DNA of 64,000 nucleotides from a bacterium (lineage in GTDB: Bacteria > Chlamydiota > Chlamydiia > Chlamydiales > 2-12-FULL-49-11), in NCBI GenBank assembly GCA_021847505.1, contig JAJZEO010000016.1, forward strand, positions 12,177-76,176. The letters are read 5' to 3'. This document shows positions 33,982 through 58,300 of this stretch, in pieces. Position numbers and translations under genes: made by a program. The stretch's first letter is position 1, and each line of letters opens with the position of its first letter. The notes under the pieces were generated by a model. The model was given only the letters and a program-made list of their open reading frames with translations. It was not told where the DNA came from and did not search any database.

Positions 33982-34006
33982 GAGCAAAGGCAAGGGCAGG
34001 GGCAAG
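33982..34006 (+). repeat. G-rich hexamer repeat copy 1 (25-mer gagcaaaggcaagggcaggggcaag)
   Basis: It occupies 25 of the 26 nt between the dusB stop (33981) and the stop of the convergent OMP gene (34008). Identical to 43771-43795. Confidence 0.9.
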
Positions 34007-34007
34007 T

Positions 34008-54070: not shown

Positions 54071-55384
54071 TTAACTGGGTAGGGGTTTTGGTGGTGAGAG
54101 CGCGCTCTCTAGGGTTTCGGGCGAAGCGTAAATGGTGAGAGTTTTACGTGCCCGGGTGGCCGCTGTGTAGACCATTTCGCGCGTGTAAGGCTCTTCACTG
54201 GGGGGGAGGATGAGGTGGACGTGATCAAATTCGCTCCCTTGGCTTTTGTGAATCGAGATGGCAAAGGCTAATGTATATTGGTAGAGAAGGGCCATCGGAT
54301 AAGGTCTATCAAATGTCGCTATGCCGTCTTGGTAAAGTCCCATGTCTCCGTTCATCAAACCTAGTTTGTAGTCATTTTGTGTAATCATGATGGGCGAGGG
54401 GACGATCTCTTTGTGTAGCTCATTGATCGCATCGGTGCCGAACGGGCCGTTTTTGAAGGGGGTGATGATTACACTATTTCTCTCTTTGATCAGGGGTGGT
54501 GATGGGGGAAGATCGAGCCGTTTAACCCCGGCGGTGGGATCAGATAGAAGAACTAATGCCGATGCTGCGTCTCCTTCGCGAAAGTAGGTAGCGAGCTCTT
54601 TTAAGGAAGAGACATCGGTGCGCTTTGTTTCATTGAGATTGATCGAAAGAAGGGAATCTTTGTGGCAAAGTTCTCTAAAAATGGGGCCCGCCTGAATGGG
54701 AGGGAGCTGATCGGGGTCACCCATGAGAAGGATGTGGGTTTGGGGAAGGATCGATTCAAAGAGGAGCTTGAAGAGCCGGATGTCGATCATGGAGCATTCA
54801 TCGACGATGAGAAGATCGCAAACAATCGGGCGTCTTTGTTTTGAAAAATCTTCCCCATGCTTAATTTGCAAGAGGGAGTGGAGTGTTTTCGTCGTTGCTT
54901 TAGGATGTTTCAGTCGAAAGGCAGCTTTTCCCGTGGGTGCGGTGGCGATGATTTGCTTTCCAGGGAACGACTCGATGATTTTGCTCGCTAAGTAAGTCTT
55001 TCCGCAACCAGGACCTCCTGTGACAATCACGAGTTTGTGAGAGAAGATGGCTTCAAAGGCGCGTCTTTGCGCGGGATATAGGTCAGGGGAAGGGGGAGGC
55101 AGATGATGTGTAACAGGAGGGTGGCTAGCGATTCGATGAAGATGGAAGGCAAGCCCCTTTTCAAGTTCATAATTTCTCCTCAAATAGCAACGATGATTCT
55201 CAATGACGATGGGTGAGCGGTCTTGTTGTGCAAGAGGAAGGATTTCATCGGGTAGGTGTTCAAACACAAGAAAGGGCTTTCCTTGCCGACTTTGCTCGAA
55301 TAATTGGGAGAGGAAGTGGGAGGCCTCCTTCGAGGCAGTAGGGAGGATCGTTTTCGCAAAGAGAAGGTCAATCGTTTGAATCAA
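54071..55384 (-). CDS. recD: Exodeoxyribonuclease V alpha subunit
   Basis: 437 aa. Walker A 'VTGGPGCGKTY', Walker B 'LLIVDECSMID', and 'ISIHKSQGSEFD'. It is the last gene of the recC-recB-recD operon and overlaps recB by 4 nt. Confidence 0.9.
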   Translation of the reverse strand: MIQTIDLLFAKTILPTASKEASHFLSQLFEQSRQGKPFLVFEHLPDEILPLAQQDRSPIVIENHRCYLRRNYELEKGLAFHLHRIASHPPVTHHLPPPSPDLYPAQRRAFEAIFSHKLVIVTGGPGCGKTYLASKIIESFPGKQIIATAPTGKAAFRLKHPKATTKTLHSLLQIKHGEDFSKQRRPIVCDLLIVDECSMIDIRLFKLLFESILPQTHILLMGDPDQLPPIQAGPIFRELCHKDSLLSINLNETKRTDVSSLKELATYFREGDAASALVLLSDPTAGVKRLDLPPSPPLIKERNSVIITPFKNGPFGTDAINELHKEIVPSPIMITQNDYKLGLMNGDMGLYQDGIATFDRPYPMALLYQYTLAFAISIHKSQGSEFDHVHLILPPSEEPYTREMVYTAATRARKTLTIYASPETLESALSPPKPLPS

Positions 55385-58300
55385 AGGTAGCTCCTTTGCT
55401 CTATTAAATGGATAACCCCGTGCTCTTTTCCTCGTAAGAAAAAGTAAATTGATCCGCCAAAGAGTTCTTCAAAGTGGCAATCGGGATGAATCACAGATGT
55501 GTAACGTTTCAATGCGTCGGCATAGAGGGAGGCCTGTCGTGTATAGTCGTGGGCTTGCATCGCCTGTTCAAGGGTGGCGGGGGTATAGTCAGAGAGGAGA
55601 TTGAGTTTCCAGTCGAGGATGTAATATTTTCCTTGGTGCCTAAACACGAGGTCGGCAAATCCTTTAAGGTCGAGTTCATCGGTGGCGCTAAAGAAGAAGG
55701 GAACTTCTTGGAGCATCATTTTGGGATCGACATCAGAGAGACAGAAATCGAGAAGGGGGGTGTGGAAGGCTGCTTGAACAAGCTCTTTGACTTCGCTCAT
55801 CCAGTTACACAAGGGTGTGTGTAGGAGGTCTTTTTCGATCAGGGGCTCAATGAGGGAGGGGTTCCAGGGGTGATAGAGGCCGAGTTCGATGATTTTTTCA
55901 AAGAGGAGATGGAAGAGATTGCCTGTGATGGGACCTGGGGGGAGGGTGTTTTCATTGACTTCGGCTGTCAATTCTGTATGGGAAGGGGTTGCAAGAGAGG
56001 AGAATGAGGCTATGCGTGGGCGGGATTCGTTGAGGATAAGTTGGGGTAGGGAGAGGGGCGAAGATGAGGGCAAGGGCAGGGGCAAGGGCAGGGGCAAGGG
56101 TTGCTTATCAACGAGGATAGTGGGAAGGTTTAAGGCTTTTTTTAGTGTTTCGAGGGGAAGGTCGCACATTCTTTCGTAAGTTTGGGAGAGTGAAAGGGGC
56201 TCGTCGGCAATCAGCCTTGCGAGGAAGAGATCGGCGGGGGAGGCGCTTCCCCATTTGGGCGCGGATTTGTTTTGCTCAAGGAGAAAGGGAAGGTAGAGGA
56301 GTGTTTTCGCTCGGGTGAGGGCGACATAAAATAAGCGCATTTTTTCTCGATCAAGATCGGCAATTTGTTTGATCGAATCAGGATCATCAGAGGAGAAACG
56401 TTTTGTTTTTTCTTTCGTGTGGGTAAATTCTTGTTTGAACTTAGTGGGGCTGATGATTCCAATCGGAAAGACAACATCGAATTCAAGCCCTTTACTCATG
56501 TGCATTGTCATCAGTTGTACTGCTTCTGTTTCGCATAATGAGCGTCTTTTTATCGGGGATAAAGTTGACTTGAGGGATTCGATTGCCGAGAGGGGATTGC
56601 TGCGATTGAGGGTAAAGATGGTTTCAATCGACTGGAGTAAATCGCCGTAGTGGTCTTGATTTTGTGCAATGATGTCGATGATCGGTCTTTCTTCAAATGT
56701 TTGTCTTAAAAGCTCTGGCAAAGTAGTCACTTGGGCAAATTTTGTGAGGGCCTCTACAAAATCAGGATGGGTCAAGTCAGTAGTCAAACGTTCAAAAGGC
56801 CTGCCAACAAAGGGGTGGCAGAGAAATTGATTGAAGAGGGAAGTGTCGCGGCGATTCTCAAAGAGGCGAAACGCTAGTTCTATGAAACGGAATGCTTGGG
56901 TTTCAATGAGGTTGGTTGTTGCTGATGAGAGGAGAGGGATCTTTTTCTCGGAAAGGATTTCGGCGACTCTCTGGGCTTGAAATCGGTCTTTGACCAAAAT
57001 GGCCATTGTATCTAGTGAGCGGTTTTCGTCCACTTTAAGTCGACAAATTTCATGGGCGATATAGTGGATGATATTTTCTTCACTTTCGCAAGAGATGAGG
57101 GCGGTGACTTGACCTGGTTCTTCTCTAGCGGCTAAGATCGGCTCATGTGTAAGAGAGAGGGGATCTTCCTCGAAAGTAAACAGGCCTTGTGTGGTCGATT
57201 CGTCAAAGAGGCGGTTGATCGTTTCAATGATGGGTTTAGCACTTCGGTAATTTGTGTTAAGACGGTAGTGGTGCTTAAATGAGGCTTTTGCCTTGAGATA
57301 AGTCGAGAGGTTGGCCCCACGAAAGGCGTAGATCGACTGCTTGGGGTCACCCACCACGACAAAAGGATCAACATAAGAGAGAAATAAGGAGGAAAAAATA
57401 TTCCATTGTTTGGGATCGGTATCTTGAAATTCATCGATGATCACGGCCACATAGCGACTTCTGACAAGTTTGACGAAGGGGGGATGGTCGAGTCGCGTTT
57501 CCATGGCATCGAGGAGATAGTTGGGATTTTTCATTGCCACAAGGTCGACCCTTTCCTTGGCTTTTTGGGCAAGTCGCATAAAGGTGATTAAGGGGTCTTG
57601 TGCTTCAAGCACGAGCGCTTGAAGAGCCTCGAAGGCTCGTTGATTCTGTAGGGGAGGTTCTTTTCCCTTTTTAAGGTTAGAGGGGGTGAATAATTCAAAA
57701 ATCGAGGGGGTTGTCGAGATCAATTTCTCAAAATCATCGCACCCTTCGATTTGCTCTGTCACAAAAGCAAAGAGATCGCCGGCTCGGTTAGCGCACTTTT
57801 TATGTGCATCAGCGAGAAGGTAGAGATCGTCTTTTGAAATCGAGGGGATCAGTTCATCAAACTGCTTTCTAAGTACCGAATAGGGTTGATAGGGGATCAA
57901 TTGGGGATTAGACTCTAAGAAGTCGGCGATTTTCTCGACCAGTCTGATCGTATTTCGTTGGAAATGACTCATCAGTCGCAAAAGTTGCCCTGGACTAAAT
58001 TCGGTATCGTCGAGAGTTGTTCTAAGAGTATCGAAAATAGCCTTGAACACCTCCTGTCTTTTCTCTTCACTTTCAGGATCTCCTCCTGAAAAAGAAATCC
58101 CCGACTCGAGCGCATATTCGTTCAAACACCGGTAGCAAAATGAGTGGATGGTGTGAATCTCGGCATTTTCCATTTGCCCCCTCTGATTTTCGAGGATGAG
58201 GCGGGCTTCTCCGTCTAATTGGGCGGCCATTTTTTTAATATTTTCAAAGATCCGTCTCTTTAAATCGCGCACCCCCTTTTTCGTGAAGGTGGTGATTAAG

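Follow-up and report, generated by a model that had tools for sequence, protein, structure and literature searches.

Contig JAJZEO010000016.1, from a metagenome-assembled genome (MAG) of the Chlamydiota (assembly GCA_021847505.1), was analyzed over 64,000 nt (positions 12,177 to 76,176; hereafter, the window). This stretch carries four tracts built from tandem GGGCAR hexamers, each 25 to 45 nt long and all four with the G-rich side on the + strand (S1 to S4; Table 1). The reading that we favor, tentatively and with slightly less than even confidence, is that the four are solo copies of a dispersed, quadruplex-capable simple sequence repeat (SSR) family, (GGGCAR)n, and that the same module forms the inverted arms of foldback elements elsewhere. 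The tracts belong to an already known and poorly understood kind of repeat; their sequence, the 6-nt unit, and the host phylum are new.

Matches to GGGCARGGGCAR with at most one mismatch numbered 15 in the 64-kb window, all 15 of them on the + strand, compared with 0.85 expected from shuffled sequences; none of 100 shuffles contained 15 or more. Tandem Repeats Finder (TRF) resolved S2 (40367-40411) into 3.8 copies of a period of 12 (90% match) and S4 (56068-56100) into 2.8 copies of the same period (100% match), with weaker period-6 arrays at S1 (33984-34006) and S3 (43765-43795). These were the only hexamer arrays of note that TRF found in the window. Short tandem units carrying a run of three or more G residues (G3+) are thus present at four unlinked loci, and the coordinates given in a preliminary description of this DNA stand as they were. 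Also borne out is its statement that the G-rich strand is the + strand regardless of gene direction, although with four tracts this co-orientation (P = 0.125) is not significant alone and is statistically uninformative. No further tract was detected in the 10 kb scanned past each window end.

All four tracts share an 18-mer, GGCAAGGGCAGGGGCAAG. Beyond this common word, S1 and S3 share the 25-mer GAGCAAAGGCAAGGGCAGGGGCAAG, whose identity in two copies had been noticed in the preliminary description and which includes the off-consensus units GAGCAA and AGGCAA; S2 and S4 have a 29-mer in common. Because these imperfect units are shared, the tracts are, judging from their letters, related to one another and copied rather than independently built.

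Orthologous sites and same-species assemblies

S1 fills all of the 26-nt gap that separates two convergent stop codons, those of the genes for the tRNA-dihydrouridine synthase Dus and an outer-membrane protein (OMP), at 0 nt from the former stop and 1 nt from the latter. S2 follows the 3' end of the minus-strand tRNA-Pro(GGG) at a distance of 13 nt and is 257 nt upstream of a hexapeptide-transferase gene. S3 is located in the last codons of the DapA gene, where it encodes GKSKGKGRGK, and ends 3 nt before the stop codon (starting at 43799) of a convergent glycosyltransferase gene; the last 24 residues of DapA are the product of S3 and of the read-through that follows it. S4 is in frame in the minus-strand gene for a RecB-like protein, encoding PLPLPLPLPLP, a (PL)5 run between the helicase and nuclease domains.

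We compared these sites with contigs from related species: L122 at S2, S3, and S4; L128, L129, L130, and L131 at S1; and L131 also at S2. The nearest other species, L122, is syntenic with the window, and its DapA is 73% identical. No tract was found at the orthologous S2, S3, or S4 site in L122, nor at the orthologous S1 site in L128, L129, L130, or L131 (three further species, with Dus 80, 76, and 72% identical). At S1, the relatives have a 17-nt overlap of the two genes or unrelated spacers of 6 nt and 22 nt. At S2, conserved flanks in L122 enclose 42 nt of unrelated, G-run-rich sequence (GGGTGTCGCGGGGTGGGAGTGG), and L131 has ~37 nt of unrelated sequence, again with no tract. DapA of L122 ends in NKYRATAMKR, and its stop codon overlaps the neighboring stop (TTAG), giving a 4-nt overlap of the genes. 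As the window has 13 nt more than L122 at this site, its DapA frame continues beyond the ancestral stop and runs 36 nt into the neighboring gene. A 12-nt core is nonetheless shared at S3, GAGCAACGGCAA in L122 and GAGCAAAGGCAA in the window, with 11 of 12 positions identical and read in a different frame. At S4, the RecB linker of L122 (PLIHSLPTS...) is nearly equal in length, and S4 therefore replaced sequence instead of simply adding to it. Across ~50 kb of syntenic sequence from these relatives, no tract was detected anywhere. S3 and S4 lie in frame at nonconserved positions of conserved protein genes, whose homologs lack both segments. Taken at face value, these comparisons mark the tracts as recent gains in this lineage, without visible length variation and dispensable in the relatives. 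Present in one species and absent at the compared sites of four relatives, they offer a datable case of repeat spread.

Within the species, the tracts did not vary. The window is 99.995% identical over 21 kb to contig DAHXLL010000032.1 of assembly GCA_027365995.1. S2 was unchanged in same-species contigs L118, L125, and L126; S3 in L118 to L121 and L125; and S4 in L132 and L133, so that each of these three tracts was identical in contigs from 2 to 5 other assemblies. This held even for contigs with 0.1% divergence, including one with four substitutions in 3.4 kb, and no unit-number polymorphism was seen at S2 to S4. The preliminary description had proposed an expandable in-frame microsatellite and a comparison of copy number across strains. 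That comparison, run here, revealed no change among the same-species assemblies, and the proposal finds no support: tract lengths were equal in every such assembly compared, and a 6-nt unit cannot switch the reading frame. Nor do the tracts fit a phase-variable contingency SSR, given the lack of unit-number polymorphism and a unit divisible by 3; no tract was found between promoter hexamers.

We also regard it as unlikely that the tracts are independent microsatellites, grown in place by local slippage and alike by convergence or possibly gene conversion, with no mobile or copied element involved. Such an origin would suit their perfect 12-nt periodicity in TRF, the absence of flanking repeats, and the corresponding L122 sequence at S2 to S4, which is comparable in length and, even without a tract, rich in G runs, rich in P/L, or GCAA-like. 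It fits poorly with an identical 25-mer bearing two off-consensus units at two unrelated junctions, with the use of one unit at four sites where 64 kb contain no other hexamer array, and with tract lengths that do not differ among assemblies. The carriage of the same tract by multicopy elements with conserved interiors in other genomes, described below, also speaks against it.

The tract in other genomes and its possible mode of spread

A scan for the 18-mer GGCAAGGGCAGGGGCAAG in one genome per GTDB species returned at least 117 loci. Among the matches listed, many stood alone in a high-GC genome, and some of these looked like Gly/Lys-rich coding sequence (by reading, with ORFs [open reading frames] unchecked). 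The low-GC matches listed were mostly in Chlamydiota MAGs (at least seven; L007, L038, L056, L080, L082, L084, L085, and L100) and in one Verrucomicrobia MAG; several loci each were listed for the latter and for one MAG each of the Planctomycetota and the Deltaproteobacteria. In these genomes the tract is often arranged in inverted pairs, whose polarity was 5'-C-arm, 36 to 220 nt, G-arm-3' in 12 of 13 cases and the opposite in one, and the pairs are predicted to form near-perfect hairpins of −100 to −144 kcal/mol. Terminal inverted arms are present in L038, L042, L085, L100, and L017. The two copies in L042, for example, have a homologous 90-nt interior between arms of 54/36 and 36/66 nt, and three MAGs (L080, L084, and L085) have the outer repeat TTATGCAAGATGTC in common in nonorthologous contexts. 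Paired elements start 8 to 45 nt past stop codons and often fill convergent intergenic gaps.

In the Deltaproteobacteria MAG EC_MBin.16, at least 14 copies, ~98% identical, were found of a 129-bp half of a ~260-bp element. The complete element (L017, 7411-7671) consists of CTAG, a hairpin, a C-arm, 120 nt, a G-arm, a hairpin, and CTAG; copies are also found at L005, L019, L022, L028, L040, L041, L044, L057, L066, L074, L108, and L110, and contigs of EC_MBin.16 frequently end inside it. A similar end, CCTGCTAG, was observed in a Sandaracinaceae MAG (L024). Other hexamer-periodic tracts, (GGCTTC/GGTTTC)n, (GATCGG)n, and (AAAGGC)n, directly adjoin GGGCAR tracts at L066, L089, L099, L101, and L114 (Deltaproteobacteria MAG) and at L037 and L068 (Hydrogenedentota MAG); composite hexamer-repeat regions therefore exist in those genomes. 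We considered an autonomous element between the distant arms at L114 and rejected it, as the intervening DNA is low-complexity, high-GC sequence. A scan of viral contigs with the 18-mer gave 18 matches, of which those read resembled coding stretches of the GKGRGK type, with no foldback pair among them. A metagenome scan with the S1/S3 25-mer gave two matches, read as coding Gly/Lys-rich stretches (ORFs not called).

Taking the shared off-consensus units together with lineage-specific presence, patchy distant occurrence, and membership of multicopy elements at those distant sites, we favor spread by copying over slippage or an ancestral signal. We infer that an existing tract would have been copied into a new site within this lineage. 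One possible route is short-patch template switching seeded at a G run or GCAA-like sequence, as suggested by the residual similarity at S2 and S3 in L122. In a second, a foldback element would insert and then lose one arm and its spacer. The 6/12-nt periodicity would then permit slippage to adjust the length. Tracts would survive only where 25 to 45 nt of filler do no harm, that is, in gaps between stop codons or just past one, behind a tRNA, within the tether of RecB, or as a tail of DapA, and placement at stop codons and in nonconserved protein segments would be the residue expected from purifying selection. Under such a scheme the tracts are probably neutral: no host function is needed to explain them, and any effect, such as that of an unstructured, C-rich segment directly behind a stop codon in minus-strand RNA or of G4 folding by S2 and S4 on the + strand, would be a by-product.

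Several observations weigh against the interpretation of the tracts as copies of a dispersed family. The window copies share no flanks outside the tract, no convincing or consistent target-site duplication accompanies them, and no transposase was identified in the ~84 kb read. Nor are there clean insertions: at S2, S3, and S4, sequence of similar length is replaced, with a surplus of 15, 13, and 3 nt in the window. The census amounts to four tracts in ~84 kb, all inside 22 kb and in one orientation, and no inverted partner arm was found within 400 nt of any of them. The cross-phylum picture derives from the matches listed for a single word. Finally, the very tight adjacency to stop codons could reflect selection for function.

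A bolder proposal, to which we assign a rather low probability, is that (GGGCAR)n is the conserved functional core of a foldback family spanning the Chlamydiota, Verrucomicrobiota, Planctomycetota, and Myxococcota-like "Deltaproteobacteria." The order of C-arm and G-arm makes the G-rich strand face outward at both ends in 12 of 13 pairs, as in telomeres, and the interiors and outer repeats of the foldback elements are wholly different between genomes. If the proposal were true, an unrecognized trans-acting machinery would read or write the hexamer repeat, perhaps a transposase or nuclease that specifically recognizes the repeat or its quadruplex or i-motif form, or a templated repeat-adding polymerase, and the solo tracts of the window would be its footprints. 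The recurrence of one C-arm/G-arm foldback plan around one hexamer in unrelated phyla is the single aspect of this work that could lead to something new. In the window, the tracts are solo arms, without spacer or outer repeat, and the outer repeats of the L038, L085, and L100 elements are absent from it.

Gene context, transcripts, and structure

The genes at the four sites are listed with the tracts in Table 1.

Table 1. Positions of the GGGCAR tracts and of the genes beside or around them
Feature	Positions	Strand	Details
S1	33982..34006	+	25 nt, GAGCAAAGGCAAGGGCAGGGGCAAG; 2 G3+ runs
S2	40367..40411	+	7.5 units, with variant units GGGCAT and GGGTAA; 8 G3+ runs
S3	43765..43795	+	GGGCAAGAGCAAAGGCAAGGGCAGGGGCAAG; 3 G3+ runs
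S4	56068..56100	+	Perfect (GGGCAAGGGCAG)2.75 array; 6 G3+ runs
Dus (tRNA-dihydrouridine synthase) gene	33004..33981	+	Stop codon (33979-33981) abuts S1
Legionella_OMP-family outer-membrane protein gene	34008..35144	-	Second of two tandem paralogs; stop codon 34008-34010
tRNA-Pro (anticodon GGG)	40425..40501	-	S2 just 3'
DapA (DHDPS family) gene	42902..43834	+	310 aa; S3 in 3' end
Nucleotide-diphospho-sugar transferase (glycosyltransferase) gene	43799..44470	-	S3 lies 3 nt past the stop codon
RecB-like helicase-nuclease gene	55381..58443	-	1020 aa in gene call; S4 between UvrD_C and PD-(D/E)XK domains

Directly next to three of the four tracts, a minus-strand gene or tRNA has its 3' end, with gaps of 1, 13, and 3 nt, in agreement with the preliminary description. 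In 200,000 trials of random placement, at least three of four tracts were adjacent to a 3' end in none, and when the three tracts that lie outside gene cores were placed only outside gene cores, the probability of such adjacency was ~1e-4. S1 and S3 are within ~50 bp of a stop codon or extend across an ORF end, and S2 is near a tRNA end. The RNA of the C-rich strand was also as first described, with 48 to 61% C, 13 to 16% G, and almost no A, and predictions give it almost no structure (minimum free energy, −4 to −7 kcal/mol). The tract, a direct hexamer repeat that is not self-complementary, folds weakly on either strand when the G-quadruplex (G4) term is left out of the prediction.

One might take these features for a gene-end signal, in which C-rich minus-strand RNA would load Rho at a Rho utilization (rut) site and so terminate transcription or insulate tightly packed convergent genes. 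Chlamydiae encode Rho. The C-rich, G-poor, unstructured RNA begins 1 to 13 nt past a stop codon or the end of a tRNA, three of the four copies directly adjoin the 3' end of a gene or tRNA on the minus strand, and the OMP gene beside S1 lacks the hairpin terminator that its upstream paralog has (35213-35234). We nevertheless consider this explanation improbable. The tracts measure 25 to 45 nt compared with ~70 to 80 nt for described rut sites; S4 is translated, which would exclude Rho; at the same junctions the relatives do without a tract, having an overlap of 17 or 4 nt or an unrelated spacer; and in other genomes the C-arm is perfectly paired with the G-arm, which is incompatible with Rho loading. 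Moreover, S1 and S3 are at convergent junctions, where either orientation puts the C-rich strand after some gene. The organism does have hairpin terminators of the canonical type, such as the intrinsic one between the tandem OMP paralogs (35213-35234, - strand), a 9-bp stem with TTTTATTTT after it; the downstream paralog is without a hairpin terminator. An exact-protein look-up for the OMP gene returned no record. A second minus-strand hairpin (43736-43755), a 7-bp stem AAGGCGA..TCGCCTT with a T-rich tail, was observed 10 nt beyond S3, inside the DapA coding sequence; none is present at this position in L122. A search of the window and five tract-bearing loci against Rfam at gathering thresholds returned tRNAs only. 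S2 lies beside the tRNA that reads the CCC codons filling its C-rich strand, which we treat as coincidence.

A quadruplex is predicted for S2 and S4, with 8 and 6 G3+ runs separated by 3-nt loops, and not for S1 and S3, with 2 and 3 runs; the earlier assertion that only the two long copies satisfy the G4 rule therefore stands. Turning on the quadruplex term lowered the predicted energy from −11.0 to −28.3 kcal/mol for S2 and from −12.2 to −24.0 kcal/mol for S4, and on this modeling both could fold into a G4 on + strand DNA or RNA. Such predictions, and the formation of G4s and i-motifs in vitro by analogous repeats of Xanthomonas and Nostoc (PMC4692102), would be in keeping with a functional G4/i-motif element that modulates replication, recombination, or the expression of neighboring genes. 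We think this quite unlikely, since S1 and S3, though incapable of an intramolecular three-tetrad G4, are found at sites of the same kind, relatives lack the tracts, and transcriptome analysis brought no function of the analogous repeats to light (PMC4692102).

Far less probable is that the tracts are a replication-oriented polar motif, their shared orientation reflecting the polarity of the chromosome arm, as for the FtsK-orienting polar sequences (KOPS). Each tract contains GGGCAGGG, which fits the KOPS consensus GGGNAGGG, a consensus that is from E. coli and may not be that of the Chlamydiota; GGGNAGGG occurs in the window 14 times on the + strand and 2 times on the - strand, or 7 versus 2 outside the tracts. 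S1 has the same orientation as the other tracts even though it lies beyond a switch of GC skew at ~40 kb, in a region (32-40 kb) where the + strand is C-rich (52 G3+ versus 126 C3+ runs). Within 300 nt in both L038 and L042, copies face in both directions, and the Xanthomonas repeats have no preference for the leading or lagging strand (PMC4692102).

The change of sign of the GC skew at ~40 kb coincides in position with an intergenic region (40110-40425, between the hexapeptide-transferase gene and tRNA-Pro) that may be origin-like or a promoter region. It has DnaA-box-like 9-mers at 40120 (+) and 40247 (-), the inverted pair TTTTCCACA/TGTGGAAA, and a stretch rich in AT, and its TTTCCACA-like motifs are kept in relatives; DnaA boxes were not enriched in the window as a whole. 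Around S4 (54000-58000), RecD and RecB are encoded on the minus strand in spite of a + strand GC skew of +0.28, so that their coding strand is unusually C-rich and G-poor. The composition of S4 is that of this region.

The best named relatives of proteins in the window are chlamydial. Just upstream (L135, 4687-7323) is a gene for topoisomerase I (TopA) with a C-terminal SWIB domain; TopA-SWIB fusions are typical of Chlamydiae, which supports the assignment of the window to this group. Positions 1-16000 (also in L135 and L136) form a block of 35% GC, compared with ~44% elsewhere, that is dense with glycosyltransferase and methyltransferase genes (GT2, GT10, GT11, GT25, and Methyltransf_21) and whose gene sizes vary among same-species assemblies (e.g., 301 versus 282 aa). 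This block has the look of a surface-glycan island that varies between strains. At the boundary of this block, inside a minus-strand ORF (15935-17935), is a C/T-rich low-complexity tract of ~4 CCTCTCCC-like units (16078-16117), unrelated in sequence to the GGGCAR tracts. From locus position ~18200, about 5.5 kb past the window end, the gene content of L132 and L133 splits downstream of a CoiA-like gene, with a sigma-70 gene in one assembly and cupin and unknown genes in the other, reflecting either a strain-variable region or an assembly difference.

Comparison with known repeat classes

Literature searches for the repeat on either strand, for MITEs (miniature inverted-repeat transposable elements) of Chlamydiae, and for hexanucleotide or G4 repeats in Chlamydiae returned nothing specific. 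The preliminary description had suggested a dispersed element like the repetitive extragenic palindromes (REPs) or the Rickettsia palindromic elements (RPEs). In the broad sense of a dispersed element this suggestion is the best supported, by lineage-specific presence, shared imperfect units, and multicopy hairpin arms elsewhere; the defining features of REPs and RPEs themselves are lacking. REPs, including their mosaic (BIME) and hairpin-forming (REPIN) assemblies, are imperfect palindromes with a GTAG/CGTC tag and an associated IS200/IS605-like transposase, RAYT (Bertels & Rainey 2011, PMC3116915; Di Nocera et al. 2013, PMC3733652). Like the tracts, they are short, dispersed, extragenic, and close to gene ends, occur as singlets and as inverted doublets (~70 nt apart), and can form long hairpins. 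The (GGGCAR)n repeat differs in being a nonpalindromic tandem hexamer without a GTAG/CGTC tag, and two of its copies are intragenic. RPEs, in the account attributed to Ogata et al. (2000), are reportedly selfish palindromic units of 100 to 150 bp and conserved sequence, from an obligate intracellular bacterium, that are said to lie in frame in genes, tolerated in surface-exposed or linker segments. S3 and S4 resemble them in lying in frame in tolerated protein segments; the window tracts, as tandem hexamers of 25 to 45 nt, have no palindrome.

Foldback elements with inverted arms of short tandem repeats are known from Drosophila (FB elements). In other genomes, the GGGCAR tract resembles foldback MITEs in forming both arms, variable in length, of noncoding elements of 150 to 260 bp with conserved interiors; many copies are near-identical, assemblies break at them, and some outer repeats are flanked by TA or CTAG. 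In contrast, the window copies consist of one arm, with no spacer, outer repeat, or identified transposase, and neither terminal inverted repeats nor a target-site duplication or clean insertion was found there. Replacement-like junctions, the absence of target duplications, and the absence of a transposase disfavor classical MITE insertion. Between genomes, outer repeats vary and the hexamer arm is conserved, the reverse of what would be expected of a single transposon family. The likeness to rut sites lies in the C-rich, G-poor, unstructured RNA directly downstream on three minus-strand transcripts; unlike rut sites, the tracts reach at most half the usual length, one copy is translated, and none is conserved in relatives. 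Each of the assignments to REP/REPIN, RPE, MITE, and rut fails on at least one defining feature tested.

The closest known class consists of dispersed heptamer repeats from Xanthomonas and Nostoc that form quadruplexes. According to Rehm et al. (2015, PMC4692102), two Xanthomonas species each have ~185 dispersed copies of (GGGAATC)n, and Nostoc has (GGGGA(C/T)T)n repeats, related to the cyanobacterial short tandemly repeated repetitive (STRR) heptamers. Of these repeats, 89 to 93% are intergenic (7 to 11% intragenic in Xanthomonas), at a mean of 28 nt from the upstream ORF and with some overlapping stop codons; inverted pairs number 70 to 75 per genome, four units are preferred, and 42 to 56% of the Xanthomonas repeats have at least four G3 runs (PMC4692102). 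They form G4s and i-motifs in vitro, with no tie to known mobile elements, no strand bias, and no function found (PMC4692102). The tracts described here are alike in their short, G3-containing tandem units, dispersed as solo copies (in the window) and as inverted pairs (here in other genomes), in their concentration 0 to 50 bp from stop codons or ORF ends, some between convergent ORFs, in copy numbers around the four G runs needed for a G4 (2 to 8 runs here), and in having no recognized transposon link. The pairs are termed "convergent" in PMC4692102, and those found here run from C-arm to G-arm, which may or may not be the same polarity. The tracts differ in sequence and in host, a Chlamydiota MAG, and in density, with four copies in 84 kb, all solo, two of them not long enough for a G4. 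With a unit of 6 nt (and a 12-nt superperiod) rather than 7, the tracts can sit in frame in genes, as two of the four do. For annotators, such tracts are a warning, in that they break MAG assemblies and shift stop codons. If our reading is correct, this class includes a variant that, with a unit length that is a multiple of 3, enters proteins in frame, rewriting the C terminus of DapA and placing (Pro-Leu)5 in the tether of RecB, and a little-studied class of G-rich, quadruplex-capable repeats would extend from Xanthomonas and cyanobacteria to a phylum of intracellular lifestyle.

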